From a virus (taxonomy: Duplodnaviria > Caudoviricetes), in the IMG/VR virus record IMGVR_UViG_3300020471_000006, positions 128,001-192,000 of that record: a stretch of 64,000 nt of DNA. One strand, 5' to 3'. The notes beneath the pieces are model-generated. The model made no database searches and had not been told where the DNA came from. It saw only the letters and a list, made by a program, of their open reading frames with translations. How positions within the stretch are numbered: position 1 is the stretch's first letter; every line of letters starts with the position of its first letter. Shown here piece by piece: positions 4,387 to 24,044 of this stretch. Position numbers and translations under genes: made by a program.

Positions 4387-4848
4387 ATGACAACTCAGGT
4401 TCAATTCCGAAGAGGTACTACAGCTGAGCATGCTCTCTTCACTGGGGCGCAGGGTGAACTGACGATTGATACTGACAAGAACATGGCCGTCATTCATGAC
4501 GGAACCACTACTGGTGGATTTGACGTTTTTAGGGCTAGATGGGAATATATCAATTCAAATCAAACTCTTGGAACAAGCCTTCGTTATTTGGTGGACTCTT
4601 CAAATGGTCCAATATCGTTAACCCTTCCGCTTTACAATAATCAATTAGTTCCCAAATCTGGGGATGTAATAGAGTTTATTGACGTAAAGTTTAGTTGGGA
4701 TATAAATAATGTTACTCTGACGGACCCTATCGGACGACAATTCCAGAATACATTTGGAGTTATATCATCACCTCTGGTGTTTGATGTCAAAGGAGCAAGT
4801 GTCCAACTTATTTGGGAAGGAGTTTACTGGAGGGTAATAGTCCAATGA
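4387..4848 (+). CDS. Tail-fibre-associated protein (Mtd/hyaluronidase-type N-terminal motif plus gp34-like domain)
   Basis: QVQFRRGTTAEHALFTGAQGELTIDTD...VIHDG motif; C-terminal VDSSNGPISLTLP...GDVIEFID domain resembles long-tail-fibre proximal repeats. Confidence 0.65.
   Translation: MTTQVQFRRGTTAEHALFTGAQGELTIDTDKNMAVIHDGTTTGGFDVFRARWEYINSNQTLGTSLRYLVDSSNGPISLTLPLYNNQLVPKSGDVIEFIDVKFSWDINNVTLTDPIGRQFQNTFGVISSPLVFDVKGASVQLIWEGVYWRVIVQ
4701..4708 (+). promoter_or_regulatory. Possible internal late promoter TATAAATA
   Basis: Exact T4 late consensus inside the 4387 CDS, ~140 nt before the next gene. Confidence 0.4.
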
Positions 4849-9414: not shown

Positions 9415-9738
9415 ATGGCATCTGGAATATTGGGGACTCAACAATCCCTAGCCGCAAATACATTAACAACAGTATATACAGTACCTGCGAGTACAGTAGC
9501 ATACTGTAACTTCAACATTGTCAACACTAATGCAACCCCAGTTGATGTAAGAGTAGCTATTGCAGCTGCTGATACACCATCTGCTGCTGAGTATGTTGAG
9601 TACAATGCTGAGATCGGAGGATACGGAGTTCTAGAAAGAACTGGATTCGCTATGCAAACAGGTAAGAAACTTGTTGCCTTCTCAGACACAACTGGCGTGA
9701 GTATCTCTGCCTATGGTGTTGAAGAATCAACTTCCTAA
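9415..9738 (+). CDS. Small virion structural protein (about 100-aa beta-rich domain)
   Basis: TVYTVP...N...VRVAI...Y...YG pattern also present twice in the 22914 protein. Confidence 0.75.
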   Translation: MASGILGTQQSLAANTLTTVYTVPASTVAYCNFNIVNTNATPVDVRVAIAAADTPSAAEYVEYNAEIGGYGVLERTGFAMQTGKKLVAFSDTTGVSISAYGVEESTS

Positions 9739-9772: not shown

Positions 9773-10096
9773 ATGGGACGCAACCTCACACCTGCATCTG
9801 ACACAAGAGAAACCGTAGCAGTTACTTCAGCACATTCTATATTGGCTGGACAAATTTTGCTACTTGATACTACTAGTGCTGCATTCACAGTAACTTTACC
9901 TGCTAATGGTAAATTAGGAGACAGAATCAATTTAATTGATGCTGCTGGTAACTGTGATGTTAACAAAGTAACAGTATCCAGAAATGGACACAAGATCGCT
10001 AACTTGGCTGAAGATCTTGATTTCGATTTGAAGAACGCTTCACTTGAGCTCATTTATACAGGTTCAGCCTACGGATGGTCAATTCTATCCAACTAA
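9773..10096 (+). CDS. Small tail-fibre protein, single gp34-like domain
   Basis: LDTTSAAFTVTLPA...GDRINLIDAAG...NKVTVSRNG.KI...AEDL...L.LIYTG..YGW matches the long-tail-fibre proximal repeat pattern; paralogous to the C-terminal half of the 4387 protein. Confidence 0.7.
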   Translation: MGRNLTPASDTRETVAVTSAHSILAGQILLLDTTSAAFTVTLPANGKLGDRINLIDAAGNCDVNKVTVSRNGHKIANLAEDLDFDLKNASLELIYTGSAYGWSILSN

Positions 10097-10114: not shown

Positions 10115-11041
10115 ATGTCGAGTTTACGAGATCTATTAGATGTACCTGAAGCAGATGTAGTCCCTATACAAACGTATATGGGCGGTGGTCAGCATCAGAT
10201 ATATTATAGAGGAAATATGTGTTGGCAGTTTGAGAGTTCGTATAACTACGACTGGCAACGTATAAGATGGTGCGTCCCTAACAGCTGCATCTGTAGGGTT
10301 AAGTTTGAAATCTGGGGTGGCGGTGGAGGCGGCTCTGGTACATGTTGCTGCTCTATTGCTTGGCCTGGTCACTCTGGTCAGTACAGTGCTTGTACTGTTT
10401 GTGCTGCTGTACAAAGTGTCTCCCAGTTAGACGGTTGTTGTTATGATATATGTGTCGCCAATGGTACGTGTAGATACCCTTCTGGCGGTGGTTTTGATGG
10501 TTGCAAATCCTATATTAGTGGTCCAGGATTAAGCGACTTCTGTGCATGTGGTGGTTGTCATGGTCATCAGTGTTGTCACTGGATTGATTCCTACTTTGCT
10601 TGTAGAACCAGAATAACAGATACTGGTAAATCTTGTTCTAGAAGTCAAAGCGAACACTATACAATTAATAGTAGTGATTGCATGGATCAGTGTGAAAAGT
10701 ATGGTAAGTGGTATTGGAACGGTCTTACTCCTTATATTCATTATGATTGCAACCCTGGTTGTGGTAACTATTGCATGAAGAAAGACTACCATCCATATCC
10801 TGCTATGTACGGTGCTCGTTATGGAGTTGTTAATGGTTACAGAAAGCATACTATGGCAACTTGTGGTAGAACTGAAACACTATGGTTGACAGGTAACAAC
10901 GGTGGACTCTCAGGAGACTGCTGGAGAAACGGTCCTCCTGGTTCTGGTGGTGTATCTGCTCAGGTGTTTGGTGGTGGTTGCTGCTGTTCTTCTGAGGGTG
11001 CTCATGGACTCGTAAGAATCACTCTATACTGTAAAACATAA
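10115..11041 (+). CDS. Cys- and Gly-rich adhesin-like protein, paralog 1
   Basis: 308 aa, 32 Cys by manual count; FEIWGGGGGG..CCC and C-terminal G.VRI motifs of glycine-rich (gp38/ALK-GRD-like) domains. Confidence 0.8.
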   Translation: MSSLRDLLDVPEADVVPIQTYMGGGQHQIYYRGNMCWQFESSYNYDWQRIRWCVPNSCICRVKFEIWGGGGGGSGTCCCSIAWPGHSGQYSACTVCAAVQSVSQLDGCCYDICVANGTCRYPSGGGFDGCKSYISGPGLSDFCACGGCHGHQCCHWIDSYFACRTRITDTGKSCSRSQSEHYTINSSDCMDQCEKYGKWYWNGLTPYIHYDCNPGCGNYCMKKDYHPYPAMYGARYGVVNGYRKHTMATCGRTETLWLTGNNGGLSGDCWRNGPPGSGGVSAQVFGGGCCCSSEGAHGLVRITLYCKT

Positions 11042-11051
11042 GGAAAGGCAA

Positions 11052-11990
11052 ATGAATTTACGAGAACTATTAGGAAGAGAATTTGCTTCGACAATACAAG
11101 AAACAGTTGCAGCAAATACTGCACTAGAAAGGAACCACGAAGGTAGAGTATTCTTATTCCATCCTTATTGTAACGAAGGTAACTGTGAAAGTAGTTACAG
11201 AGGTTACTGTCTTCAGTATTGGTGTGTTCCTTGTGGTACTACTCAAGCAACTTTCGAGTTGTGGGGTGGAGGCGGTTCAGGCGGTGGTGCTTGCTGCTGT
11301 CAACAAGGTATGCCTGGTGGTGCTGGAGGATACGTAAGAAAGACTCTTGAGTATCCACAGATACAAGGTGGTTGGTGTTATTCACTCTGTGTTGCATCAC
11401 CTAACTGCTGCTCAAGATGCTGCTGTGGTATTAGAGGATGTAAAACATGGGTTAGTGGTTGTAACTTAAACAACCTCTGTGCTGATGGTGGACTTCCTGG
11501 TAAGACATGTTGCTGGGCTTTCTGGAACTCAACATATAGATGCCAAGATAAAGTTTCTTGGGGTGGATGTGGAGGATGGAGACTTCACGAAGATGGAGCA
11601 TGCTCCTACGGTGGAGATGAGATGATTAAGGGAAGACCTGGTGCTTTCATCACTCACTGTAATGATAATAACTGTTGGACAAAAGGATTGATGCCTTATC
11701 CTGCTGGTCTTATCAATCAAAAAGGTGGATGGTTAACACAAAACTATCAAGGTAATGCATGTATACATCAATACATGTATTGCTCAGGTACGACTCCTTG
11801 GGCGTACAACATTAACTGTAACGGTGGTCCAGGACTTCCTGGAACTGGTGCTCCTTCTGCTACTGCGTGTGGTGGTGGATGCTGTTACGGATGGCGTGGT
11901 GGCGGTGGATTCATTAGAATCACATACTGCTCATGCTGGTTACAGACAAGTTCACAGAACGAAGACTGTGCTTGGTACTACTTTAACTAA
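11052..11990 (+). CDS. Cys- and Gly-rich adhesin-like protein, paralog 2
   Basis: 312 aa, 34 Cys by manual count; FELWGGGGSGGGACCC...GGAGGY...GGGGFIRI. Confidence 0.8.
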   Translation: MNLRELLGREFASTIQETVAANTALERNHEGRVFLFHPYCNEGNCESSYRGYCLQYWCVPCGTTQATFELWGGGGSGGGACCCQQGMPGGAGGYVRKTLEYPQIQGGWCYSLCVASPNCCSRCCCGIRGCKTWVSGCNLNNLCADGGLPGKTCCWAFWNSTYRCQDKVSWGGCGGWRLHEDGACSYGGDEMIKGRPGAFITHCNDNNCWTKGLMPYPAGLINQKGGWLTQNYQGNACIHQYMYCSGTTPWAYNINCNGGPGLPGTGAPSATACGGGCCYGWRGGGGFIRITYCSCWLQTSSQNEDCAWYYFN

Positions 11991-12013: not shown

Positions 12014-12919
12014 ATGGCTAATACAAATTTACGAGATCTATTAGGATTCGTTACATCAGATTCATTGGAGGGACTATCAGCACCCGATGCTACCACAAAA
12101 CTAGCAAGACTACCGTCTGCTGGTTATTGTGTACAGTATATTCACGGTGCTTGTGGTTCAACTTGTAGTGAACATTCCACCAATTACAACTACTATAGGT
12201 ATCCACTCTGGTGTATTCCTACTGGAGTCTGTGATGTTATCTTCGAAATCTGGGGTGCTGGAGGCGGTGGAGGATCATCCTGCTGCTGTTCTAGGGGCAT
12301 GCCTTCTGGTTCTGGTGCATATGCGTGGAAACGTATTACAGGTGCTGCGTCATCTCTTCAAGGATGTTCATATGATATTCATGTAGGTAGACCTGGTTGT
12401 GGTAGAACTGGATCACAGTGTGGTAATCAAGGTGGTACTAGTTACATCACTGGTTATGGTTTGAGTAACTTCTGTGCTAGAGGTGGACATGGAGGATGCT
12501 CATGCTGCTTCCTATGCTGCTGCACATGGAATGCTCAATCAATGGGTAGTTGCCCTTATGGTTGCTGTGCAACTTATCACGGTGCAGACGGTGGAGCATA
12601 CGGTGTTCCTGGTGCTGCTTACGTATTCTGTTACAATAACCATTGCTGGAACAAACAACACGTTCCTTATCCTGCTGGATTAGTTAATGGTAAAGGTGGT
12701 TGGATGACTGCTGTTACTTGTGAAAACAGTGGATGTGGACATTGCATGCTACATTGGGCATCTGCTCAGTTAGGATGGGGTGGATCATTCTCTGATCACA
12801 ACTATGTACCTGGTGTTGGTGGACCTTCTGGTTGGACTTGCAGTGGTGGTTGTTGTCGTGGAGAGAACGGTACTGCTGGTATGATCCGTATCAACTTCAA
12901 GTACGACGAAAACTTGTAA
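12014..12919 (+). CDS. Cys- and Gly-rich adhesin-like protein, paralog 3
   Basis: 301 aa, 29 Cys by manual count; FEIWGAGGGGGSSCCC...GSGAYAWK...YDIHVG.PG...GGTSY...ARGGHGG...G.AGMIRI. Confidence 0.8.
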   Translation: MANTNLRDLLGFVTSDSLEGLSAPDATTKLARLPSAGYCVQYIHGACGSTCSEHSTNYNYYRYPLWCIPTGVCDVIFEIWGAGGGGGSSCCCSRGMPSGSGAYAWKRITGAASSLQGCSYDIHVGRPGCGRTGSQCGNQGGTSYITGYGLSNFCARGGHGGCSCCFLCCCTWNAQSMGSCPYGCCATYHGADGGAYGVPGAAYVFCYNNHCWNKQHVPYPAGLVNGKGGWMTAVTCENSGCGHCMLHWASAQLGWGGSFSDHNYVPGVGGPSGWTCSGGCCRGENGTAGMIRINFKYDENL

Positions 12920-12955: not shown

Positions 12956-13810
12956 ATGGCTTTTACAAAAACATTCACATATAAAGTACCAGATGATTAT
13001 TTGGCACAAACTGATTCTTTAGGAAAGACTGCTGAATGGACATATGATGGTCCAAGATGGTTGTTCGTTTTCGTTGATAAGGAAACTAACAAATGGATTC
13101 CTTCACAGTCATGTATCGGATTGAATAGAGAGCCAACATCTGGTGACATCGAGCATGCAAATGTACGTGCTGGTATAGATGAAATCGCAGTCCAGATTGA
13201 CATGGCTTCTCCTACTGACGAAGAAGCAATCATTGGTTCTATCCTCTTCCCTAAAGATACTGGTAAAGCATCTGGTTATCCACAAAAGGATTACAAGATT
13301 TCTGGAGACGATACAGTATATTACTCACGTCCAGAACCAATCTCTCCTGACCATGCCTATGCAGCTGATGAGATCGAGTATGATCCAGCAGCAGGTGCTT
13401 GGAAGTCTCCTCTTCCTTGGTTCAAGCCTTGGATTTCAATGGAACAGCATAAAGCAGCAAGAGATACTCTAGTTGCAGATGCTCAAGCAAACCTAGACGC
13501 AGAAGCAACTGAGAATGGTGGTCAGGGTAACCTTACTGACCAGCAAAGAGCTGCTCTTACAGCATTTATTGGCGAATTAAACGGTATCTATACAAAGTTC
13601 CCTGCTGCTGATGGTTGGGGACCACACATGATTCCATTCCCTGATGATCCTCGTACTCCTTGGATTGATGGATATGACTATCGTGTTACAGACTACGAAG
13701 AGTTGATTGATGCTGCAACAGGATTAACTAAGTCTTCTGATGTTCCTGCTGCTGATGTTGTTGAAGATGTACAACAACAAACACTTAGAGACGGCACAAA
13801 AGCTGATTAA
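12956..13810 (+). CDS. Putative tail-fibre assembly chaperone-like protein
   Basis: C-terminal LTDQQRAALTAFIGEL...FP...IPFPDDP resembles the LT..Q....YR..LRDLP..FP...WP.P tail-assembly chaperone pattern; follows the adhesin-like genes. Confidence 0.5.
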   Translation: MAFTKTFTYKVPDDYLAQTDSLGKTAEWTYDGPRWLFVFVDKETNKWIPSQSCIGLNREPTSGDIEHANVRAGIDEIAVQIDMASPTDEEAIIGSILFPKDTGKASGYPQKDYKISGDDTVYYSRPEPISPDHAYAADEIEYDPAAGAWKSPLPWFKPWISMEQHKAARDTLVADAQANLDAEATENGGQGNLTDQQRAALTAFIGELNGIYTKFPAADGWGPHMIPFPDDPRTPWIDGYDYRVTDYEELIDAATGLTKSSDVPAADVVEDVQQQTLRDGTKAD

Positions 13811-13829: not shown

Positions 13830-13857
13830 AAGGACGGAGTAAAATCCGTCCTTTTTT
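13830..13857 (+). terminator. Rho-independent terminator
   Basis: AAGGACGGA-GTAAAA-TCCGTCCTT perfect 9-bp stem followed by a T run. Confidence 0.9.
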
Positions 13858-13862
13858 ATGCG

Positions 13863-13870
13863 TATAAATA
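13863..13870 (+). promoter_or_regulatory. Late promoter TATAAATA heading the modification-enzyme block
   Basis: Exact consensus directly after the terminator. Confidence 0.8.
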
Positions 13871-13918
13871 GTAGCGAAGTTGAATAAATCCTTCTATATC
13901 ATTCTATATTAAAATATT

Positions 13919-15100
13919 ATGAGACCCAAATCGTTTTTTATTAACGGTGGAGCTGGACGTGTACTATGCTCTATCCCTGCATTTGAAAAATATGCGGAAG
14001 ACCATCCAGACGAAGACTTTGTAATAGTCTGCGAAGGTGGTACAGATTTCTATAAAGGTCATCCTATTCTACACAGGAAATGCTACGATCACTGGCATAA
14101 AGATCTTTTCGAAGACAAGATTAAACACACAGATATAGTTACACCAGAACCATATAGAATCTGGCATTACTATAATCAAAAATGCAATCTCTCTCAAGCA
14201 TTTGACATTGAGATTAATGGTTTAAAAGAACCAAGAGAACTTCCTGCACCAACAATCAAACTTTCCAGAGAAGAAGAAACAACTGGAATATTTGTTGTAG
14301 AAGAGGTTCGTCAAAGAACTAAGAAAAAGAAAACCGTAGTCTTCCAACCTTTTGGTAGAGGAGTTCAGACTGCTGGTAATATTATTATGGATACTTCTGG
14401 TAGAAGTTTCGAGTTTAATAATGTTGTTAGTATCATTAAGAAGTTGCAGAAAAAATATTCTGTTATTCTTCTATCAGAATTAACAATTGATTTTGAGAAA
14501 GAAGGGATGACTGATACTGTATCTCATCCTGTCAACAGACCATTGAGAGAACTTGCTGGTGCTATTAAAGCAGCAGATTTATTCATTGGATGTGATTCTG
14601 TTGGGCAACATATTGCTAAAGCATTTGGTAAACCAGCAGTTGTAGTTGTTGGGTCTACATTCAAAGAAAATATCAGTTACCCAGATGACAAGAAGTTTAG
14701 TGTTCTTGATATGGGTGAAGGTATGAGAGTATACGATCCTATTCGTATTACTATTGATGAGTATACTAACAGAGTCAATGATCGTATTATGGCGATGAAT
14801 GATAAGGTTGAAGCTGTTATCATGCAAGAGGTTGATAAACTGATGAAGAAGTATTATAAAGCTTCTGATAAAGTTATCAGACTTCCTGATGAGATGCAGC
14901 AGCAAGTAGATTATACTTTACAGATGGAAGAGGACATGAAGAAGCAAATGGCTTCTGGAAAACAACCAACTGTTCCAACAGGTATGATGAAACAATCCAA
15001 CAATCCAAATTTGATTCCAGCATTGATGGCAGATACTAAAGACATTAAACCACTAAGCAAAGTTCCTTCTGGATTTGCTGACTTAGCGAAAGGTAAATAA
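13919..15100 (+). CDS. GT9-like (heptosyltransferase-fold) glycosyltransferase
   Basis: LRELAGAIKAADLFIGCDSVGQHIAKAFGKPAVVVVGST matches the GT9 nucleotide-sugar-binding motif; N-terminal GGAGRVLCSIPA matches the GG.GD.l...P pattern. Confidence 0.7.
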   Translation: MRPKSFFINGGAGRVLCSIPAFEKYAEDHPDEDFVIVCEGGTDFYKGHPILHRKCYDHWHKDLFEDKIKHTDIVTPEPYRIWHYYNQKCNLSQAFDIEINGLKEPRELPAPTIKLSREEETTGIFVVEEVRQRTKKKKTVVFQPFGRGVQTAGNIIMDTSGRSFEFNNVVSIIKKLQKKYSVILLSELTIDFEKEGMTDTVSHPVNRPLRELAGAIKAADLFIGCDSVGQHIAKAFGKPAVVVVGSTFKENISYPDDKKFSVLDMGEGMRVYDPIRITIDEYTNRVNDRIMAMNDKVEAVIMQEVDKLMKKYYKASDKVIRLPDEMQQQVDYTLQMEEDMKKQMASGKQPTVPTGMMKQSNNPNLIPALMADTKDIKPLSKVPSGFADLAKGK

Positions 15101-15101
15101 T

Positions 15102-16802
15102 ATGATTATTTTATGTGTTGCACGTGGTCACAACGGTAGTACCACACTAATGGTAGACGGTGAGATAGTCTTCTATCTCGAAGAAGAGAGGCTTAGTAGA
15201 TTTAAGTATGATGGATCTCCTATGCTAGGTATACTTAAAGCATTTGAGTATGTTGATCATATTGATCATCTAGTTGTATGTCATACACATAGATCTGGTC
15301 CTAATTTAGATTGGACTGGTGAGCATATGTATGAGGGATTTGTAAGAAAGATTGCTAGAAAGAAATGGGAATTTGAAACAACTTATATTGATTTGAATCA
15401 CCATGAGATGCATGCTGCATGCGGTTTCTATAATTCTGGATTTGAATCTGCTGCATGTGTTATTGCAGATGGTGCTGGAAGTTTCTTAAATATGCAAGAA
15501 GTTCCAGATACTTTGTATGAATTTGAAACCATCTTCCATGCAGAGTATCCAGAAGAGTTTGAATCTGTATGGAAACATATCGGAACTAAAGCTGCTATTG
15601 GTTTCCATGAACCAGAACCTAATACATTCATTACTGAGTATCCTGGTCATACTAAAATGTATGAAGCAGTAACACAGTACTGTGGATTCCCTGCTATTGA
15701 AGCAGGTAAACTTATGGGTCTTGCACCATATGGTAAACCTAATGATGAACTACCATCATTCTTTAATGGAGAATGGGGTAATAGAGATTTGATTGTTCCA
15801 ACATATCCTAATGCTGCTACTATTAATGAAAGTAGATTCCAAATACTTAAAGATGATCGTAAACAGCATCAACAAGGTGAAGGTGAAAGAATAGATCATA
15901 CAGATGTACAGAAGGATATGGCATATAAGATTCAGGAAGAAACTTCTGAACGTATGTGTCAATTGATTGAGAAAGCAGTTGAGTTAACTGGTGAAAAGAA
16001 CATTGTAGTCTGTGGTGGTTATGGTCTCAACTGTGTAGCAAACTATAAGTACTGGGATCGTTTCCCTGATCTAAACATCTATTGTGAACCTATCTCACAT
16101 GATGGTGGTACATCTATCGGTGGAGCACTTTATAAGTTACATCAACTTACTGATAATGAAGAACCTAGAAAGCAAGCATCTGTTTATTATGGTCCTCAGT
16201 ATGATCCTACTACTTATGAAGATGCTATTGCTGGACGTGATGTAACAGATACTGATTATGATTCAGTTGCTGCACTCATTCGTGGAGGTAATATTGTTAC
16301 TATCTTCCAAGGAAGATCAGAAGGTGGTCCTCGTGCTTTAGGTAATAGATCTATTCTCTTTGATCCTACTGTTAAAGATGGTAAGGATATTGTTAATGGT
16401 GTTAAGCACAGAGAATGGTTCAGACCATTTGCATGTTCTATTAAGAAGGAACACGTTCATGAGTGGTTTGATTTGAAAGGAAGAGATGAAACACCACACA
16501 TGATGTATGCTGTAGAGTGTCTTGAAGGTGTTGAGGAGAAGATTCCGTCAGTAATTCATGTTGATGGAACTTGTCGTATACAAACTGTAACTGAGGAACA
16601 AAATGAACATTACTATAAACTCATTAATGCTTTCCATAAAATTACAGATGTACCTATACTCTTTAACACTAGTTTCAATCTTGGAGGCGAACCTCTTGTT
16701 GAAACTATCCATGATGCGTTAGAGACATTAGATAATAGTGAGATCGAGTACATGTATCTCCCAGAAATTCAAAAGCTAGTTAAGGTTCCTAACCGTGACT
16801 GA
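15102..16802 (+). CDS. O-carbamoyltransferase (NodU/CmcH/TobZ family), paralog 1
   Basis: EEERLSR.K, HHEMHAA, DGAG, GKLMGLAPYG, LNCVAN, GPRALGNRSIL, REWFRPFA, HVDGTCRIQTV, NTSFN motifs. Confidence 0.92.
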   Translation: MIILCVARGHNGSTTLMVDGEIVFYLEEERLSRFKYDGSPMLGILKAFEYVDHIDHLVVCHTHRSGPNLDWTGEHMYEGFVRKIARKKWEFETTYIDLNHHEMHAACGFYNSGFESAACVIADGAGSFLNMQEVPDTLYEFETIFHAEYPEEFESVWKHIGTKAAIGFHEPEPNTFITEYPGHTKMYEAVTQYCGFPAIEAGKLMGLAPYGKPNDELPSFFNGEWGNRDLIVPTYPNAATINESRFQILKDDRKQHQQGEGERIDHTDVQKDMAYKIQEETSERMCQLIEKAVELTGEKNIVVCGGYGLNCVANYKYWDRFPDLNIYCEPISHDGGTSIGGALYKLHQLTDNEEPRKQASVYYGPQYDPTTYEDAIAGRDVTDTDYDSVAALIRGGNIVTIFQGRSEGGPRALGNRSILFDPTVKDGKDIVNGVKHREWFRPFACSIKKEHVHEWFDLKGRDETPHMMYAVECLEGVEEKIPSVIHVDGTCRIQTVTEEQNEHYYKLINAFHKITDVPILFNTSFNLGGEPLVETIHDALETLDNSEIEYMYLPEIQKLVKVPNRD

Positions 16803-17436
16803 TCATTTTGAAGATATCTTAGTTATTGATGATGTAATCAGTCCAAGATATCAGGAGCATCTTAGACAATCCGTTATGGATTCTAAGTTCCCATGGTACT
16901 TCAATCGTGATATAACAGCACCTTTGTGGTATTGGGAACAGAATAAACTTAATGATTCTAAATTAGAAGTTGAGGATGCTCTATTTACTGGGTTTATGCA
17001 CATCCTTTGGGGGAGAGAGGGTAAGGAATCTGAGTCGTATGATATCTTCGTTCCTCTCTTGTACTCGATGGAAGAAAAGATCAATATGACTATCAAGGAT
17101 CTTGTTCAATTAAGATTGGGTCTCTTTACATTGAACAAGAACAAACACCCTCATCATGTTCCACATGTTGATTATCAGGGTGATGGGTTGAAGTACACAG
17201 CAATCTATTACCTGAATGATAGTGATGGAGATACACATTTCTTTAATGAATTTTTAGATCCTAGTATCAAAAGGTTCATTAATGGGTATGACCCCAGTCT
17301 CTTTACCGTTGCTAAAACTGTTAAACCTAAATCAGGTAGATTAGTTTTATTTGATGGTCGAAGATATCATGCCTCTCGCTATCCAGAGAGCACAACAGAA
17401 CGTATTGTATTGAATATAAATTTTAACCCTGTTTAA
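16795..17436 (+). CDS. 2OG-Fe(II) oxygenase
   Basis: PHVD...AIYYLNDSDGDT...PKSGRLVLFDGRRYHAS...RIVLNIN (HxD...H...R). Confidence 0.8.
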   Translation: MTDHFEDILVIDDVISPRYQEHLRQSVMDSKFPWYFNRDITAPLWYWEQNKLNDSKLEVEDALFTGFMHILWGREGKESESYDIFVPLLYSMEEKINMTIKDLVQLRLGLFTLNKNKHPHHVPHVDYQGDGLKYTAIYYLNDSDGDTHFFNEFLDPSIKRFINGYDPSLFTVAKTVKPKSGRLVLFDGRRYHASRYPESTTERIVLNINFNPV

Positions 17437-17438
17437 TT

Positions 17439-19148
17439 ATGTGGATACTTGGTGTTAATAGATCTCATGATGCTGCTATTTGTCTCATGAAAGACAATGA
17501 TGTAGTGCTGTCCATACAGGAAGAGAGATTAACACATGTCAAATATGACAGAGAAGTATTCAATGCTCTGGATAAAGTAGCTGAAATTACTAAAGAAATT
17601 GACTTATGTGCTTATACACATTTGTACAATACTAAATGTGATTTTGGACCTTACTTTAAATACATTAAACGTATAGGGATTAAAGTCAAGAGGTATGTAG
17701 AAGCAAAGGATTATCACCATTCTCTACATGCCTCTTGTGCGTACTATAATTCAGGATTTGATAAAGCAGGTATACTTGTAATAGATGGTGCTGGTGCTGA
17801 CCATGAGTGGGGTAAGGAGAATGAAAGTATATTCTATTTTGATCAAAATCCCAATGCAGTAACATGCCTAAGTCAAAAGATTATTGGGTATTCAAATCAA
17901 AAGGTTGAAGGAGCACCACCATTTGTACATCCTACAAAAAATATTGGTGCTGGATTTGTTTACTCTGGTATCACAGAATATCTGGGATGGGATAGTTTAG
18001 AGTGTGGTAAAACTATGGGTCTTTCATCATATGGAGAACCCAATGATAGAATAAAACAAATGATATCTGAGGATGGTGGAAATGAAAATATATTTACCTT
18101 AACAGATTTCAATGAACATAAGAATGTGAATACTGTTGTTCGTCCTTATGATTACATAGCATATTCTAAGGATGAAGATGATAAGTTCCAAAGACATGCA
18201 GATCTAGCATATAGATTACAAAAAGATTTTGAAGAGTATGTGTATCAAAGAATTATGGATACACATAGATTAAGTGGATGTAATGATATCATCTTTACTG
18301 GTGGATGTGCTTTGAATTGTGTTGGTAACTATAGAATACTACAAAGATTACCAGAACATATTAATCTATATGTTGAACCTATGTCTAGTGACTGTGGTAC
18401 TGCTATGGGAGCAGCATATATTACTTACGCAAGGGAATGCCCTAAGCAGTATAGACGTAAAAGAATAAGACCATTATCACATCTTTATTTTGGTCAACCT
18501 ATTAAGTATGATTATGAATTAAAAGATAATGAATTTAAGGTATGTGAGGTTACACCTCAGAGGGTTGCTGAACTTATTAGTGACGGTAATGTAGTTGCTA
18601 TCTGTCAAGGTAGATCTGAGAATGGTCCTCGTGCTTTAGGTAATCGTTCTATACTATATGATCCCCGTGCTGTAGACGGGAAAGATATTGTTAATAAAGT
18701 AAAGAAGAGAGAACATTGGAGACCGTTTGCTGGCACAGTACTTGCTGATCATGCACATGAATGGTTTGATATGGATAGGTTGCATGAATCACCACATATG
18801 ATGTATGCTGTAAATGTACTAAAATCAATGATAGAGAAGATACCATGTATCACTCATGTCGATGGTACATGTAGAATTCAAACTCTAACAAAAGATCAGA
18901 ATCCAAACTACTATAAATTAATAGAGGCATTCTATGAATTAACAGGTGTGCCGATATTATTCAACACATCTTTTAATTTGGCTGGTGATACTATAGTGGA
19001 AACTATAGATGATGCTTTACTTACTATGAGAGAAAGTGAAATCTGTTATCTTTACTTACCTGAGAAAGCAGAACTACTATTCATACCTGATGCATCAGAA
19101 CCATCTATCAAAAGATTATCATACAAAGATTGTAATTCACTACTATGA
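17439..19148 (+). CDS. O-carbamoyltransferase, paralog 2
   Basis: QEERL...K, HHSLHAS, DGAG, GKTMGLSSYG, GGCALNCVGN, GPRALGNRSIL, REHWRPFA, HVDGTCRIQT, NTSFN motifs. Confidence 0.92.
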   Translation: MWILGVNRSHDAAICLMKDNDVVLSIQEERLTHVKYDREVFNALDKVAEITKEIDLCAYTHLYNTKCDFGPYFKYIKRIGIKVKRYVEAKDYHHSLHASCAYYNSGFDKAGILVIDGAGADHEWGKENESIFYFDQNPNAVTCLSQKIIGYSNQKVEGAPPFVHPTKNIGAGFVYSGITEYLGWDSLECGKTMGLSSYGEPNDRIKQMISEDGGNENIFTLTDFNEHKNVNTVVRPYDYIAYSKDEDDKFQRHADLAYRLQKDFEEYVYQRIMDTHRLSGCNDIIFTGGCALNCVGNYRILQRLPEHINLYVEPMSSDCGTAMGAAYITYARECPKQYRRKRIRPLSHLYFGQPIKYDYELKDNEFKVCEVTPQRVAELISDGNVVAICQGRSENGPRALGNRSILYDPRAVDGKDIVNKVKKREHWRPFAGTVLADHAHEWFDMDRLHESPHMMYAVNVLKSMIEKIPCITHVDGTCRIQTLTKDQNPNYYKLIEAFYELTGVPILFNTSFNLAGDTIVETIDDALLTMRESEICYLYLPEKAELLFIPDASEPSIKRLSYKDCNSLL

Positions 19149-19783
19149 ACTTAACAGATTTAATATTCGAGAAAAAAGACTTCCTTCCTAAAGATGATTG
19201 TGAGTCATGGATTGATTGGTTTTGGTTGAACCAACAATATCATGATAAGGGGGATTCTGGAAATGAACAAAAACATAAGAAAGCTATACAAGTAGATCCT
19301 ATTGTTGGTGGAGATTTCTGGTGTCAAATTGCTATAGAAACTGATAGAGCTATCAATGCAATGTATGAATGGGGTGCAAAAGATAAACTTCTTTGGAGAG
19401 CACCTTTAGTTTCTTATGATCATTCTATGAGATGCTACCCAAAAAAAGATGGGTGGTTTAAAGATCATATTGATCTATCTCCAACAGATCCATTACTATT
19501 GTCAAGAGTATATGCTATGATAATATATCTTGATGATGTTGAAGAAGGTGGTGAAACAGAGTTTTCATTTTTAGATTATAAAGTTAAACCAGAACAAGGA
19601 AAACTTTTAATGTTCCCTTGTAATCAGATGTATCCATATAGAGAAAACAAACCAATGAGTGGTCCAAAGCATATTGTCACTGCTTTCTTTTGTTCTGATC
19701 TACCTGCTCCACATTATGTAAATAGTCAGCATCCTAATCAACAACATCATAACTTATATTCAAAACACATGGGAATCAAATGA
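19145..19783 (+). CDS. Prolyl-4-hydroxylase-like 2OG-Fe(II) oxygenase; distal His appears replaced by Tyr
   Basis: FKDHID...MIIYLDDVEEGGETEF...KPEQGKLLMFP..MYPY. Confidence 0.75.
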   Translation: MNLTDLIFEKKDFLPKDDCESWIDWFWLNQQYHDKGDSGNEQKHKKAIQVDPIVGGDFWCQIAIETDRAINAMYEWGAKDKLLWRAPLVSYDHSMRCYPKKDGWFKDHIDLSPTDPLLLSRVYAMIIYLDDVEEGGETEFSFLDYKVKPEQGKLLMFPCNQMYPYRENKPMSGPKHIVTAFFCSDLPAPHYVNSQHPNQQHHNLYSKHMGIK

Positions 19784-20175
19784 TTATTTGGGTTAATGGT
19801 TGCTTTGATGTTCTCCATAGAGGACATTTCGAATTGCTAAATTATGCTAGGTCTTTAGGATCTATGCTTATAGTGGGTATCGATACTGACCGAAAGGTCA
19901 GAGCAGACAAAGGACCAGATAGACCCATCTATCCATTAGAGGATAGGAAGTATCAATTAAGTTCTTTGAAAGCAGTGGACGTAATCCATACGTTTGATTC
20001 AAGACAAGAGCTTGAAGAATTGATAAAAATCATAAACCCTGATATACTAGTGGTAGGTTCTGATTGGAAAAACGGAGACGTAGTAGGACGTGAGTATGCA
20101 AAGAGAGTTGAGTTCTTCGATAGGATCGGAGAATATTCCACAACAAAAACAATACAAGGTCATCGTTATAGGTGA
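19780..20175 (+). CDS. hldE: HldE/RfaE-type nucleotidylyltransferase domain (stand-alone)
   Basis: NGCFDVLHRGH (HxGH), VGIDTD..VR..KG..RP, PDILVVGSDW, YSTT motifs. Confidence 0.8.
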   Translation: MIIWVNGCFDVLHRGHFELLNYARSLGSMLIVGIDTDRKVRADKGPDRPIYPLEDRKYQLSSLKAVDVIHTFDSRQELEELIKIINPDILVVGSDWKNGDVVGREYAKRVEFFDRIGEYSTTKTIQGHRYR

Positions 20176-20929
20176 GACTTGTATAGACAAATACGTTTAT
20201 GGCAGGTGTACAAGGTTAAGTCCTGAAGCACCTGTACCAGTAATGGAATACATTCGTACTGAAACAGCAGACGGAATGGCAAGTAATGTAAGACAAAACC
20301 TCTTGTCATTTGGTGTGGATGTATATTTGATGACCAATGAATTAAAACCAGTCAAGACTAGATTTGTAGATGAAAGATCTAATCAACAACTGATGAGATT
20401 GGATGAGAATGATGAGGTTGCTGACTATGGATGGGAGTTACCAACTGGTGATACTTATCCTACTGGTACACCACATACAGAACCTATTGGTGAACCATTT
20501 GATGCCATGATCATATCTGATTATGACAAAGGATTTTTATCAGAAGAAAAGATCTTTGAATTGGTAGAAGCATTCAATGGTCCTGTATTCATAGACAGTA
20601 AGAAAAGTAAACTACCTAAGAAAGGATGCTTCATCAAGATCAATGATTTAGAAAACTCTAAGTTAAAAGGTATATACAGAAATAAGATTGTTACTAAAGG
20701 TTCTGCTGGTGCTGAGTATAAAGGAAAGATATATCCAGGTGAAGCAGTTCCTTGTTTTGATGTAGCAGGTGCAGGAGATACATTCCTTTGTGCTTTGGTT
20801 TACTTTTACTTAGAGTATGGTAAAATAGAAAAAGCAATTCCTTATGCTAATAAGGCTGCTGCTATAGCAGTTCAAAATCATGGTACATACGTTCTTTCTG
20901 GAGATGATATAGATGATATACGTAGTTGA
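20090..20929 (+). CDS. hldE: HldE/RfaE-type PfkB kinase domain (stand-alone); start position uncertain
   Basis: VIGE.CID.Y.YG...RLSPEAPVPV, ISDYDKG, DVAGAGDTF, AN.AAAIAV motifs. Confidence 0.8.
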   Translation: MSMQRELSSSIGSENIPQQKQYKVIVIGETCIDKYVYGRCTRLSPEAPVPVMEYIRTETADGMASNVRQNLLSFGVDVYLMTNELKPVKTRFVDERSNQQLMRLDENDEVADYGWELPTGDTYPTGTPHTEPIGEPFDAMIISDYDKGFLSEEKIFELVEAFNGPVFIDSKKSKLPKKGCFIKINDLENSKLKGIYRNKIVTKGSAGAEYKGKIYPGEAVPCFDVAGAGDTFLCALVYFYLEYGKIEKAIPYANKAAAIAVQNHGTYVLSGDDIDDIRS

Positions 20930-21233
20930 TATAGATGGTACTATAAGTAATTGTCCTACAGGACAATACGAAAAATCCGAACCAATGATGGATCGGATAG
21001 AGAAGTTAAATAAAATATACGACGAAGGTAACAGTATTATTTTTTATACTGCCAGAGGTATGGGTAGATTTGAAGGTGATGGGATTAAAGCACATGAAGC
21101 ATTCTATGATCTAACCTTCAATCAACTCAAGTCATGGGGGTGTAAGTTTGATGAGTTACACATGGGTAAATTTCATGCACATTATTTCATAGATGATAAA
21201 GGAGTGAATTCAGATGATTTCTTCAATACTTGA
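20913..21233 (+). CDS. Small HAD-superfamily phosphatase
   Basis: VDIDGTI (DxDGT), FYTARG, K...YFIDDK motifs. Confidence 0.75.
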   Translation: MIYVVDIDGTISNCPTGQYEKSEPMMDRIEKLNKIYDEGNSIIFYTARGMGRFEGDGIKAHEAFYDLTFNQLKSWGCKFDELHMGKFHAHYFIDDKGVNSDDFFNT

Positions 21234-21762
21234 ACCCGAAGATCTTCTTGATCCGTTTACTGTTGATTGGATCAATAAAGAACTTTATGAATATCCTGTA
21301 TCATATGGACACAGAGCTTGTGATGATGGAGATGATTTTTTCGGAAGAATATTCTTTTGGGGTGAATGGCGTGAACAGTTCCATCAGAAGAACCTACCAG
21401 CCAGTGTAGATTACTTAACTAATTTTGTAGCCACATGGTTACCATCTGCAACTAATAAAGAATTTGTAGATCTAAGAAGAATTGTATTGAATGCTGCATG
21501 TCCTAATCAACGTGGAGGTGTGCATTGGGATTCTAATGACCCATCAGTCTGGACTGTGCTATACTATATTACTGATAGTTCTGGTGATACCAACATATAC
21601 GATGGAGATTTTGAAGAAGGTGTTGAGGCAAGAAACCTTGTCCACACATGTAAATACAAGCAAGGAAAGTTTGTTGCTTTTCCTTCTACCTATATTCATA
21701 ATGCGGAGGCCCCAGAATCAGGATGGAGAATGAGTTTAGCGTGGGGTATTCAACTCCGATGA
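21214..21762 (+). CDS. 2OG-Fe(II) oxygenase
   Basis: VHWD...VLYY....GDT...GKFVAFPSTYIHNA...WRMSLA. Confidence 0.75.
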   Translation: MISSILEPEDLLDPFTVDWINKELYEYPVSYGHRACDDGDDFFGRIFFWGEWREQFHQKNLPASVDYLTNFVATWLPSATNKEFVDLRRIVLNAACPNQRGGVHWDSNDPSVWTVLYYITDSSGDTNIYDGDFEEGVEARNLVHTCKYKQGKFVAFPSTYIHNAEAPESGWRMSLAWGIQLR

Positions 21763-22100
21763 AGATTGTACAGAAAGGTTGGGGATATGAGAAGTGGATC
21801 TGCAATTCTGAAAAGTATTGTGGGAAGCTTCTATTCTTTAATGCAGGTAAGAAGTGTTCATACCATTATCACAAGATTAAAGATGAAACATTCTATGTTC
21901 AGAGTGGTGAACTAAAGATGACCTATGGTTATAGAGATGATTTTATTGATGCAGACACAATCATATTAAAACCAGGAGATAAGTTTTACATACCTCCTGG
22001 TCTTAGACATATGATGGAAGGCATCACAGACGTAGAACTATTCGAATTTTCTACAGAGCATTTTGAGGAGGACTCGTACCGTGTTCTAAGGGGTGATTAA
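21759..22100 (+). CDS. Cupin-fold putative sugar-phosphate isomerase
   Basis: ATGA-coupled start. KGWGYE.W, SYHYHKIKDETFYVQSG and PPGLRH cupin metal motif (H-x-H...E...H). Confidence 0.7.
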   Translation: MKIVQKGWGYEKWICNSEKYCGKLLFFNAGKKCSYHYHKIKDETFYVQSGELKMTYGYRDDFIDADTIILKPGDKFYIPPGLRHMMEGITDVELFEFSTEHFEEDSYRVLRGD

Positions 22101-22875
22101 TATAGTCCTCTACATTTGTAAATTCATACTTATTAGCCCAGAACATATCTGCACAGGTATAGAATTGATATTTTCCTTGTAAGTGTACAGGGAAATCTAT
22201 CTCTTCTATCTGTGCATTATATTTGTCTGCAATTATTTCAGCAATATCTCTGAAGGAATGTGGGTGTCCTGTACCAAGATCATATACTCCTGATTCCAAT
22301 TGGTTGTTCAGAACTAAGTCAACAACATCACCAACGTATATAAAGTCTCTAACCATCTTCTCAGAGTTCTTAAAGATTTTAATTTTACCTGTCATCTTTG
22401 CTTCCTCAGTAAATTTACTGATAGGACTGCGTTGGTTTCCTTTATGCTCTTCACCTTCTCCATATACATTGAAGAATCTGAATCCTTGAATATTTTCAAA
22501 TAGATCTATATTGTCTTGTACCCAGTAGTCTACTTGAACTTTTGATATAGCATAGTAATTCAAAGGATTGATATTACCTGCTGAGTTTCCATAGACAGAT
22601 GCAGACGAGGCATACTTAACTGGTATACCTAGTTCTATTGCTTTCTTAAATAGTCTTATTGAAAACTCAGTATTGTAAATTGTGATCTTTCCAATATCAG
22701 TTTCTGTTGTACTTGATATTGCTCCCATGTGAATGATTTCATCGATATCATCCCAGACAGGTAGGTTGTCTAGTAACTGAAAAGCGTTTCCCATTTCAAA
22801 CCCGATGAATTTTCCATCAAGTTGATCGGCAAACTTCTTTCCGATGAACCCATTGCATCCTGTAAGAATTTTCAT
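22051..22875 (-). CDS. hldD: ADP-L-glycero-D-manno-heptose 6-epimerase-like extended SDR
   Basis: TGCNGFIG, YASSASVYG, YAISK, FRFFNVYGEGEEHKG, RDFIYVGDV; the NVYG..E.HKG motif is HldD-typical. Confidence 0.8.
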   Translation of the reverse strand: MKILTGCNGFIGKKFADQLDGKFIGFEMGNAFQLLDNLPVWDDIDEIIHMGAISSTTETDIGKITIYNTEFSIRLFKKAIELGIPVKYASSASVYGNSAGNINPLNYYAISKVQVDYWVQDNIDLFENIQGFRFFNVYGEGEEHKGNQRSPISKFTEEAKMTGKIKIFKNSEKMVRDFIYVGDVVDLVLNNQLESGVYDLGTGHPHSFRDIAEIIADKYNAQIEEIDFPVHLQGKYQFYTCADMFWANKYEFTNVEDYINHPLEHGTSPPQNAL

Positions 22876-22882
22876 ATAAATA
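22875..22882 (+). promoter_or_regulatory. Late promoter TATAAATA overlapping the hldD start codon on the opposite strand
   Basis: CAT-ATAAATA at 22873-22882. Confidence 0.75.
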
Positions 22883-22913
22883 ACTAACGATTGTAATATA
22901 AACCCCCAAAGTT

Positions 22914-24044
22914 ATGGCTACTTATGGTGCTCTAGCAGCTATAGTCCCACCAGTCAAGACTAGGACAGTTCTTCATGAGGCTCCAGCAGCAAAGCTGGTA
23001 GAGGCAAAAATTTCAATATCTCACCAAAGTCCATACCCAGTAAGAGTAAGGATCGGAGTTTCAAGTGGTGCGTTGTTGGCTTTCGCTCCATCGAACTACA
23101 TCCTATATGACATGGAGATTCAGTCTGGAGAGACTTATGAAACTCAAACTATGTACTATGCCAATGGGCAAAGTCTGATTGTATATAGTGATTACGAAAC
23201 TACCTCTTTCTTGGTACATGGAGAAGTTGTTGATAACCCAGTTGGTTCTGGATTCTTAAATTCTGCTCTTGTAACTACTGCTAGAACTAATACTAGTATC
23301 TACACAGTACCTACTGGTGAAGACGTAGAACTTTCGATCTTCGTTTCTAACCAGAGTCACACTCCTTCTAGATTCAGAATAGGAATCTTAGAGGATGGAC
23401 AAACAGAATTACAGACTTCAAACTACTTAAATTATAACACGAAACTATTTCCTAGAACATTCTATCAGAGAACTGACATTAAAGCAACAGGAGATCAACA
23501 GATTATTGTGTGGGCTGAGGATGCCAACATAATGAGTTTTGCTGTATATGGTAAGTTTAAGTATAACATTATTGCAACTGACTTCAGTGTTAATGGGAAC
23601 TTTACTGTTGTTGGAGACTCTGATTTACAACAAAATGTTGGTGTTGGTGGAACTCTTGACGTTACAGGAGCTGCAACTTTTCTTGATGCTGTCACTGTAG
23701 ACGGTGAACTAGGAGCCAAAAGTGGTATCAAAGGTGGTGCTGATTTAACTACTCCTACCTTTAGTGTTTCTGCTGCTGGTGCTATTGCTGGTGCTAGTGC
23801 TTCTGTTACATCTGCTCTTGCTTGTGGTACTACCTTCGGGGTTGGTGGTACTAAGTTCACAGTAGATGCAGATGGTAACACAGTTGTAGATGGAACCTTA
23901 GATGTACACAGTGGTGTTACTGCTGATCTAAGTCTTCTAAATAATAAAATAACGAATCTAGGTAGAGCTACTGCGCCAGGGGATGCAATGTCCAAGACTG
24001 CTGTAGACTCCCAAGTAACTGCATTAGCAATTGCACTTTCATAA
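22914..24044 (+). CDS. Virion structural/fibre protein
   Basis: Two copies of the 9415-type domain, a Gly/Thr/Val-rich stalk and the C-terminal fibre motif NKITNL..AT.PGDA.SK..VD. Confidence 0.7.
   Translation: MATYGALAAIVPPVKTRTVLHEAPAAKLVEAKISISHQSPYPVRVRIGVSSGALLAFAPSNYILYDMEIQSGETYETQTMYYANGQSLIVYSDYETTSFLVHGEVVDNPVGSGFLNSALVTTARTNTSIYTVPTGEDVELSIFVSNQSHTPSRFRIGILEDGQTELQTSNYLNYNTKLFPRTFYQRTDIKATGDQQIIVWAEDANIMSFAVYGKFKYNIIATDFSVNGNFTVVGDSDLQQNVGVGGTLDVTGAATFLDAVTVDGELGAKSGIKGGADLTTPTFSVSAAGAIAGASASVTSALACGTTFGVGGTKFTVDADGNTVVDGTLDVHSGVTADLSLLNNKITNLGRATAPGDAMSKTAVDSQVTALAIALS

Follow-up and report, generated by a model that had tools for sequence, protein, structure and literature searches.

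Heptose and carbamoyl groups are found together as 7-O-carbamoyl-heptose in the lipopolysaccharide (LPS) core of Pseudomonas aeruginosa, which provides a chemical precedent for their combination. Freeman and colleagues are said to have found in 2023 that glycosyltransferases encoded by mycobacteriophages modify the phages' own virion proteins, the genes lying within or beside the structural genes. We know of no sugar-nucleotide pathway and no carbamoylation in connection with that virion glycosylation. TibC and Aah use ADP-heptose to heptosylate the adhesins TibA and AIDA-I in the cytoplasm, before export (PMC4358343). A phage carbamoyltransferase acting on 5-hydroxymethylcytosine (5hmC) depends on a partner, dCMP hydroxymethylase, that is a homolog of thymidylate synthase (MetaGPA, PMC8670742). 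Cyanomyoviruses carry a set of 'LPS genes', T4-GC 302-308, the use of which was left as 'functional or stuffer DNA' (Sullivan et al. 2010, PMC3037559). We have analysed a block of genes of this last kind, beginning at position 13863 of a 64,000-nucleotide stretch of DNA (the window) taken from an IMG/VR virus record (its bases 128001-192000) that is 202.5 kb long and has a CheckV completeness of 100%. As judged by gene content and synteny the source is a T4-like cyanomyovirus, and its nearest isolates are the Synechococcus phages S-CAM1 and S-CAM3.

The block comprises ten tightly packed genes on the plus strand and an eleventh, convergent gene on the minus strand (Table 1). It encodes a glycosyltransferase (GT) with the GT9 fold, enzymes for the supply of ADP-heptose, two carbamoyltransferases (CT1 and CT2) and three 2-oxoglutarate-Fe(II) (2OG-Fe(II)) oxygenases, one of them a weak match. 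It starts after the late motif TATAAATA and has fibre genes on both sides, so that its content and position are those given in the initial annotation of this DNA. The same annotation called the block translationally coupled. The upstream gene stops at 13810, and from the GT onwards the junctions are in order +1, -8, +2, -4, -4, about -80 (at the kinase), -17, -20 and -40 nt; apart from the kinase all thus lie between +2 and -40, a tight packing from which coupling may be inferred. We propose that the block is a late tailoring cassette that puts heptose and carbamoyl groups on the tips of the tail fibres, the candidate acceptor, and we put the chance that this is correct at about even.

The association with fibre tips emerges from a comparison of 91 related loci, in which open reading frames (ORFs) were called and searched with the window proteins. 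These have a constant order, consisting of a long fibre gene, two small fibre-related genes, two to four Cys/Gly-rich fibre-tip paralogs (TRI) interleaved with one or two copies of a gene resembling a tail fibre assembly chaperone (P9740), the GT and CT1. P9740 always lies directly upstream of the GT, and in many loci it is duplicated along with the TRI genes. CT1 adjoins the GT in nearly every related locus, with a gap of just 1 nt in the window. The two are never apart in the cyanophage clade, and in about a dozen loci the pair is inverted with the same junction retained. About 80 viral contigs and all GT-positive isolates contain the unit of TRI, P9740, GT and carbamoyltransferase; in S-SSM7 and P-SSM2, too, family hidden Markov models (HMMs) place TRI and P9740 next to the GT. 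It is this unit that is conserved, not the whole block. Heptose genes follow GT-CT1 only in the clade nearest to the window phage, while CT2 and the oxygenases vary in presence between CT1 and the adenylyltransferase, CT2 being found in a subset of related loci only and the third oxygenase-like gene in just three. Heptose genes, CT2 and oxygenases are lineage-specific additions. The block of S-SSM7 also holds a halogenase, denV and a methyltransferase.

These comparisons alter the initial annotation in two respects. It had treated the block as one system, which does not hold, since heptose genes occur without the GT, many GT-CT loci have no heptose genes, and CT2 and the oxygenases are confined to particular lineages. 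It had also proposed co-occurrence with the Cys-rich fibre genes; this is borne out for the GT-CT pair with the TRI family, but not for the block as a whole.

The TRI proteins contain about 10% Cys and 18% Gly. Their orthologs are SXBG_00224-00226 in S-CAM1, SSSM7_114-116 in S-SSM7 and PSSM2_304/306 in P-SSM2. The best fold matches to a model of the second paralog (11052-11990; mean pLDDT 60) are the fiber of cyanophage Pam3, the tail tip of Bxb1 and the glycine-rich domain of ALK. A tblastn search with an S-SSM7 TRI matched 21 of 50,697 phage records, all of them GT-positive phages or from the same single-cell samples. The same search with a distant member (L095) found nothing. Single-sequence searches underestimate this fast-evolving family, for which family HMMs are needed. 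TRI was not found in the GT-negative phages S-SM2, P-RSM4 and S-SSM4. The language-model neighbours of P9740 include PF16778 (Phage_tail_APC) at 0.90, which we regard as a lead only. A predicted complex between GT residues 1-330 and the second TRI paralog has a score of 0.09 and weighs neither way.

We next consider timing of expression. The motif TATAAATA occurs 21 times on the plus strand of the genome and once on the minus strand. ORFs take up about 88% of the genome, yet 19 of the 21 plus-strand copies are intergenic, and the majority are 28-70 nt upstream of a start codon. The strand bias, intergenic placement and spacing indicate that this is a real late-promoter signal. S-CAM1 and P-SSM2 each have a hairpin at the position equivalent to that of the terminator-like hairpin in the window. 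Upstream of the GT ortholog of S-CAM1 the hairpin is followed by CATAAATA in the same place as the window motif, and P-SSM2 has TATAAATC there; in S-SSM7 there is no intergenic space at all before the GT ortholog. A scan of the sequence upstream of the window GT found no strong sigma-70-type site. From these motifs late expression of the block is well supported in the window phage, and less so across all the relatives. Marine RNA libraries of two studies contain contigs about 95% identical to the block, though carry-over of DNA is possible and depth cannot rank the genes. In one of the studies 9.3-kb contigs of the fibre cassette stop at 13796 and 13983, close to the terminator, which is a weak hint.

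An AlphaFold model of the GT has a mean pLDDT of 73, with values above 85 for the greater part of residues 1-140. Its C-terminal 70 residues, which are variable, have low model confidence. The top 24 Foldseek matches are all GT9 structures, namely 3tov (a Veillonella GT9), TibC and WaaF, and WaaC comes next, with E values of 1e-10 to 1e-7 and TM scores of about 0.5. The predicted structure thereby confirms the GT-B/GT9 fold. The donor-binding motif is also kept. Alignment with Escherichia coli WaaC using hhalign pairs D261-T262-x3-H266 with D226-S227-x3-H231 of the GT; the overall probability is low (12%), but the local match of the motif is nonetheless clear. These GT residues vary little or not at all among 80 close and 76 distant members of the family, the latter being the window protein and 75 cluster representatives at 26-43% identity. 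The donor is likely to be ADP-heptose, a deduction from the adjacent HldE/HldD-type genes.

At 50% identity the GT family forms 620 clusters, and the 90% collection contains 3899 of its proteins. Its homologs were found solely on viral contigs, or on contigs of metagenome-assembled genomes (MAGs) that carry phage fibre genes. A pattern-based scan of cellular genomes, reaching only close relatives, gave 11 loci, all on MAG contigs and none in an isolate. The well-scoring MAG loci look like mis-binned phage DNA, since they carry phage fibre genes. The MAG contigs with a phage fibre cassette are filed under Methanobacteriota (L010, L013 and L015), Chitinophagales (L011 and L014) and Neomarinimicrobiota (L012 and L016); all are probably mis-binned, and the last two, of 335 and 153 kb, may be genomes of jumbo phages. 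The cyanophage cases could share one ancestry, and for this reason distant members at 26-27% identity to the window GT were examined. In Vibrio phage D505 the gene is directly upstream of that for a 1756-aa tail protein; in L108 it comes after the gene for a collar-type fibre, with an Mtd_N-type fibre gene about 3 kb downstream; and in L104 it follows a tape-measure-like gene in the same gene run. No carbamoyltransferase or heptose genes are found near the GT in any of the three. These contexts indicate that the link between the GT family and tail genes is broader than the cyanophage cassette.

That the enzymes of the block make ADP-L-glycero-D-manno-heptose is fairly secure from their family relationships. 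HldE is split, with kinase and adenylyltransferase as separate genes in reversed order. TIGR02198 is the best family for the kinase, though its score is below the equivalog cut-off. The kinase ORF opens at a GTG at 20090, but the ATG at 20096 is the likely start. The small HAD protein matches TIGR01689 and not a GmhB model. There is no match to GmhA (SIS-fold, PF13580) in this 100%-complete genome, and the cupin, which has weak matches to the mannose-6-phosphate, lyxose and ribose isomerase cupins, possibly replaces this isomerase. In GenBank and RefSeq the HAD orthologs are named 'phosphoheptose isomerase' and the cupin orthologs 'cysteine dioxygenase' (L002, L003 and L004); neither name fits the family matches. 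The best solved relatives of the epimerase are four HldD structures (E 2e-34 to 2e-17), of which the E. coli enzyme is the closest. Its gene converges on the operon and overlaps that of the cupin by 50 nt (22051-22100). All fibre-module loci that contain the gene have it inverted, and in the window its start codon directly adjoins the late promoter of the following fibre gene (22875-22913).

Both carbamoyltransferases score above the cut-offs for Carbam_trans_N and Carbam_trans_C. Their solved relatives are 7xb6, TobZ, NovN and GdmN, with E values of 1e-43 to 1e-54 for the last three. All three oxygenases have the HxD motif, and in two of the three the distal His is aligned, with HxD...H present in oxygenase 1 and in the weak third gene; the best solved relatives of oxygenase 2, at weak scores, are bacterial and viral prolyl 4-hydroxylases (P4H). 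The idea of a collagen-directed prolyl hydroxylase was rejected, as Gly-X-Y runs of six or more are absent from the window proteins. The only Gly-X-Y-like runs of the genome, at genome positions 79423-79875 outside the window, are Gly-rich stretches with no clear collagen repeats.

Carbamoyltransferases also occur in other virion modules. In S-SSM4 (NC_020875.1; 6512-8053) a NodU-type carbamoyltransferase is located between the major head protein gp23 and gp3 within the core late structural operon, and the same arrangement is seen in records of Synechococcus phage ACG-2014d. Phages of this type gave no tblastn match to the GT or the heptose kinase. This placement suggests a virion-linked role for carbamoylation alone. 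In P-RSM4 (NC_015283.1; 2877-12824) a carbamoyltransferase has four 2OG-Fe(II) oxygenase genes on one side and, on the other, five hypothetical genes beside a tail fibre gene; again there is no tblastn match to the GT or the heptose kinase. The association of carbamoyltransferase, oxygenase and fibre thus recurs without heptose genes.

Table 1. Features of the tailoring block and its immediate surroundings (window coordinates).
Feature	Position	Strand	Basis
Three tandem Cys/Gly-rich fibre-tip paralogs (TRI), candidate acceptors	10115-11041, 11052-11990, 12014-12919	+	phrog_4205; weak PF21722
Tail-fibre-assembly-chaperone-like gene (P9740)	12956-13810	+	phrog_9740
Terminator-like hairpin GGACGGA...TCCGTCC then T6, closing the fibre-tip unit	13832-13857	+	direct sequence reading
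T4-type late-promoter motif TATAAATA	13863-13870	+	56 nt before GT ATG at 13919
GT-B/GT9-fold glycosyltransferase (GT), [D/N]GGxGR signature	13919-15100	+	phrog_8954 E 5e-170; fold model
O-carbamoyltransferase 1 (CT1; NodU/CmcH/TobZ family), constant GT partner	15102-16802	+	PF16861 E 3e-59, PF02543
2OG-Fe(II) oxygenase 1 (P4H-like), lineage-specific accessory	16795-17436	+	PF13640 32 bits, above cut-off
O-carbamoyltransferase 2 (CT2), accessory	17439-19148	+	PF16861 E ~1e-59; 38% identical to CT1
2OG-Fe(II) oxygenase 2 (P4H-like), accessory	19145-19783	+	PF13640 37.6 bits, above cut-off
HldE domain II type adenylyltransferase (rfaE_dom_II)	19780-20175	+	TIGR02199 E 3e-33, under equivalog cut-off
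Heptose 7-phosphate kinase, HldE domain I type (rfaE_dom_I)	20096-20929	+	TIGR02198 E 3e-37, PF00294
Small HAD phosphatase, 106 aa, candidate GmhB replacement	20913-21233	+	TIGR01689 capsule-biosynthesis phosphatase E 2e-11
Third 2OG-Fe(II) oxygenase-like gene, weak, accessory	21214-21762	+	PF13640 20.6 bits, under cut-off
Cupin, candidate sugar-phosphate isomerase	21723-22100	+	Cupin_2 E 6e-10
ADP-L-glycero-D-manno-heptose 6-epimerase-like short-chain dehydrogenase/reductase	22051-22875	-	best solved relatives 1eq2, 2x6t (HldD), E 2e-34
Second TATAAATA and downstream fibre gene, block boundary	22875-22882; gene 22914-24044	+	phrog_11338 'tail fiber protein' E 4e-95

From these assignments a sequence of steps can be suggested. 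The kinase, small HAD protein, adenylyltransferase and HldD-like epimerase would, by homology, make ADP-L-glycero-D-manno-heptose, starting from sedoheptulose 7-phosphate of the host, with the cupin possibly acting in place of GmhA. Cyanobacterial LPS lacks heptose and Kdo (3-deoxy-D-manno-octulosonate) according to a review (PMC4390846), in agreement with what the initial annotation had said of the host, and the phage plausibly must therefore supply the heptose donor itself. The GT would then transfer heptose to the acceptor, as its fold and conserved donor motif suggest. CT1 could carbamoylate either the sugar, as in the Pseudomonas LPS core, or the acceptor itself. CT2 and the P4H-like oxygenases could provide extra, lineage-specific tailoring, possibly by hydroxylation followed by carbamoylation. 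By analogy with TibC and Aah, the most likely acceptors would be the TRI proteins encoded upstream, modified in the cytoplasm during late assembly. A heptose glycan on the phage's own fibres, as first envisaged, thus fits the anatomy, linkage and donor supply, while a carbamoylated or hydroxylated heptose is only one option for its chemistry.

A number of observations weigh against our proposal, the first of which concern the GT itself. Its scores are below the family cut-offs (20.5 bits for PF01075, cut-off 22; 27.9 bits for TIGR02201, cut-off 170), and a profile of 20 homologs gave no sequence match in the PDB at E <= 1. The catalytic D13 of WaaC aligns with R14 of the GT in hhalign (GDVLHTLPAL and GRVLCSIPAF respectively). 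All 80 unique close homologs have R14, among them those of P-SSM2, S-SSM7 and a Vibrio phage, as do 72 of the 76 distant sequences. With Arg in place of the catalytic Asp, canonical O-heptosylation chemistry is not assured for this family. Furthermore, the linkage of GT and TRI may partly be due to inheritance of one block within a clade of the Kyanoviridae.

Many GT-CT loci have no heptose genes within 10 kb. Five large GT-CT contigs without nearby heptose genes were searched for them elsewhere, and three of these contigs, which are only 35-60% complete and so carry little weight here, had none. Conversely, heptose genes are found without this GT in a non-structural 'LPS island' close to hli genes, where they share one strand. 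Such islands are present in S-SM2, P-TIM68, Sf-CH8 and S-T4, and contain the kinase, adenylyltransferase, HAD, cupin and epimerase genes, the epimerase here being co-directional. Their companions are several GT-A-type glycosyltransferases, a transketolase-like gene, an alcohol dehydrogenase, an aldolase and a methyltransferase, and the island may build a different glycan. In the window the epimerase has no late motif upstream, and is on the opposite strand outside the late operon. CT2 and the oxygenases are absent from close relatives such as S-CAM1. As carbamoyltransferases occur in virion modules that have neither GT nor heptose genes, a carbamoylated or hydroxylated heptose can be but one of the possible products. 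Lastly, P-SSM2 has two near-consensus sigma-70-type promoters (TTGACT, 17 nt, TATAAT) before its GT ortholog PSSM2_307, so that expression in that phage may not be late only. These sites, at about 13875-13990, overlap the terminator-like hairpin in one case and the TATAAAT late-like motif in the other.

The main rival, which we consider unlikely, is that late in infection the enzymes put carbamoyl-heptose on a glycoconjugate of the host surface, masking the receptor or modifying the envelope. This would stop the adsorption of progeny or competing phages to infected cells or debris, and the genes would accompany those of receptor-binding proteins because both track the same receptor. There is a parallel in P22-like phages, where O-antigen-modifying genes are located beside tailspike genes. 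The nearest folds to the GT include the LPS heptosyltransferases WaaC and WaaF, heptose genes are found with ordinary glycosyltransferases in the hli-adjacent islands of the four phages listed above, and the sigma-70-type promoters of P-SSM2 as well as the literature term 'LPS genes' (PMC3037559) are in keeping with such a role. However, the canonical GT9 acceptor would be missing because cyanobacterial LPS is reported to have no Kdo or heptose (PMC4390846), which leaves other surface glycans as possible targets, and the GT of the window phage has a late promoter only. In addition, within the reach of a search limited to close relatives the GT family is found just on phage-like contigs and in no isolate cellular genome, while its distant members lie within tail modules of lytic-type phages with no other envelope genes nearby.

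Somewhat less probable again is that the direct substrates of the carbamoyltransferases and oxygenases are virion proteins, modified at the hydroxyl groups of Ser, Thr or hydroxyproline or the thiols of Cys, with heptosylation a separate and parallel process. There is an established case of protein S-carbamoylation in HypF, a related enzyme, which acts on HypE. The TRI proteins are Cys-rich, and the oxygenases resemble P4H, a class of protein hydroxylase. Carbamoyltransferases are moreover present in 142 phage records compared with about 24 cyanophage records that have this GT, and in S-SSM4 and P-RSM4 they are found by virion genes with no match to GT or heptose kinase; it is this numerical excess and placement that raise the possibility of direct carbamoyl and hydroxyl chemistry on virion proteins, and they weigh against a single heptose glycan as the whole account. 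Against direct action, the closest solved carbamoyltransferases (TobZ, NovN and GdmN) use hydroxyl groups of small molecules or sugars, the GT and CT1 are never separated in the cyanophage clade, and the window proteins lack collagen-like Gly-X-Y runs.

It is improbable that the block has no dedicated function, either as sugar genes accreted in a recombination-prone fibre island or as a source of a soluble metabolite. The idea of stuffer DNA was raised by Sullivan et al. (PMC3037559), the accessory content varies among relatives, and the GC content of the block (0.34-0.37) is below that of the upstream fibre cassette (0.43). Yet all its reading frames are intact and tightly packed, the catalytic and donor motifs are conserved over the 620 clusters of the GT family, the adjacency of GT and CT survives inversions, and the block has counterparts about 95% identical among RNA-library contigs of two studies, subject to the possible carry-over of DNA.

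TET/JBP-type 2OG oxygenases start DNA hypermodification pathways in phages, which has to be counted in favour of a final possibility, that an oxygenase makes a 5-hydroxymethylpyrimidine which is then glycosylated, carbamoylated or both. Although 5-carbamoyloxymethylcytosine is the product of a phage carbamoyltransferase from the same Pfam family (PMC8670742), we regard this as very improbable because the complete genome has neither a thymidylate-synthase/dCMP-hydroxymethylase homolog (PF00303) nor a TET/JBP domain; moreover the oxygenases match the P4H-type PF13640, the late promoter and fibre context are unlike those of replication-linked genes, and just 17 of the 62 carbamoyltransferase genes in MetaGPA were on modified contigs (PMC8670742).

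Returning to the tailoring of fibre tips, a broader form of the proposal can be put forward tentatively, with a chance that falls a little short of even. The GT family, seen only on phage-like DNA, would be a widespread tail-fibre modifier of ocean phages, acting in cyanomyoviruses with a carbamoyltransferase to put carbamoyl-heptose on Cys-rich fibre tips. The GT may in that case form an unusual linkage, for example to a thiolate, carboxylate or phosphate, which would account for the absence of the general base. The additional enzymes that vary among phages, i.e. the second carbamoyltransferase, the oxygenases and the halogenase and methyltransferase of relatives, would make this surface glycan more diverse in an arms race that turns on host recognition.

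The genes that flank the block are those of fibres. Upstream are the three phrog_4205 paralogs and the chaperone-like gene, and downstream are the phrog_11338 'tail fiber protein' and a 1686-aa virion protein. The HMMs of two 107-aa proteins (9415-9738 and 9773-10096) also match orthologs of other fibre genes in S-CAM1, S-SSM7 and P-SSM2, namely the 376-aa fibre gene (22914-24044), the long fibre gene and that of a 153-aa tail protein (4387-4848). The two small genes therefore share modules with the fibres.

Cyanophages are among the most abundant viruses of the ocean, and for about 20 years these genes have appeared in lists as cyanophage 'LPS genes' with no assigned use. What would be new is the combination, the fibre tip as target and a transferase family bearing Arg, the exchange of Arg for Asp being also of enzymological interest. 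If the proposal is correct this would, as far as we know, be the first virion glycosylation system described in cyanophages, in which the virus imports a whole sugar-nucleotide pathway that its host reportedly lacks. It would also add a new chemical layer of heptose, carbamoyl and hydroxyl groups to the determination of host range. The claim can be tested directly on the cultured phages S-CAM1, S-SSM7 and P-SSM2.

The described systems can now be compared with this locus. The 5hmC system of MetaGPA differs in that the window genome has no PF00303 match, and the mycobacteriophage operons involve other GT families and sugars and have the capsid and tail tube as targets. WaaC and WaaF (CAZy GT9) share with the window GT the GT-B/GT9 fold, the D-[ST]-x3-H donor motif and donor enzymes of the HldE/HldD type. 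By contrast, the window GT scores under the family cut-offs and has Arg for the catalytic Asp, and the pathway has no host Kdo-lipid A acceptor, no GmhA, a split HldE and a tail-fibre context.

TibC and Aah resemble the present case in having the enzyme gene beside that of a candidate adhesin-type substrate, and TibC is among the best structural matches of the GT. Residues 1-97 of TibC form a beta-barrel, whereas the Rossmann-like N-lobe of the window GT starts at residue 4. The four-Cys iron finger of TibC (C339, C342, C358 and C370) is absent from the GT, which has no Cys after residue 225, and the beta-hairpin thumb is not detectable. The catalytic base Asp110 of TibC corresponds to Arg14, because D110 was superimposed on the WaaC base (PMC4358343) and WaaC is aligned to the GT. 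The substrates also differ, TibA and AIDA-I being beta-helices with 19-residue repeats while the candidate here is a Cys/Gly-rich fibre tip. Membership of the GT in the TibC/Aah (BAHT) family is thus ruled out, as it has no N-terminal barrel, iron finger or catalytic Asp. The precedent that the initial annotation had drawn from these enzymes, for which adhesin heptosylation is established, is a functional analogy only.

The closest counterpart is T4-GC 302-308, comprising PSSM2_307-313 of P-SSM2, SSSM7_120-133 of S-SSM7 and SXBG_00216-00222 of S-CAM1, in which the GT is annotated as hypothetical, the HAD protein as 'phosphoheptose isomerase' and the cupin as 'cysteine dioxygenase'. These genes are orthologs of those in the window and match them in order and in location, with the fibre genes on one side and gp13 on the other; identity is 50-70% for the GT and 50-77% for CT1. 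To this shared arrangement the window phage adds CT2 and three oxygenases.

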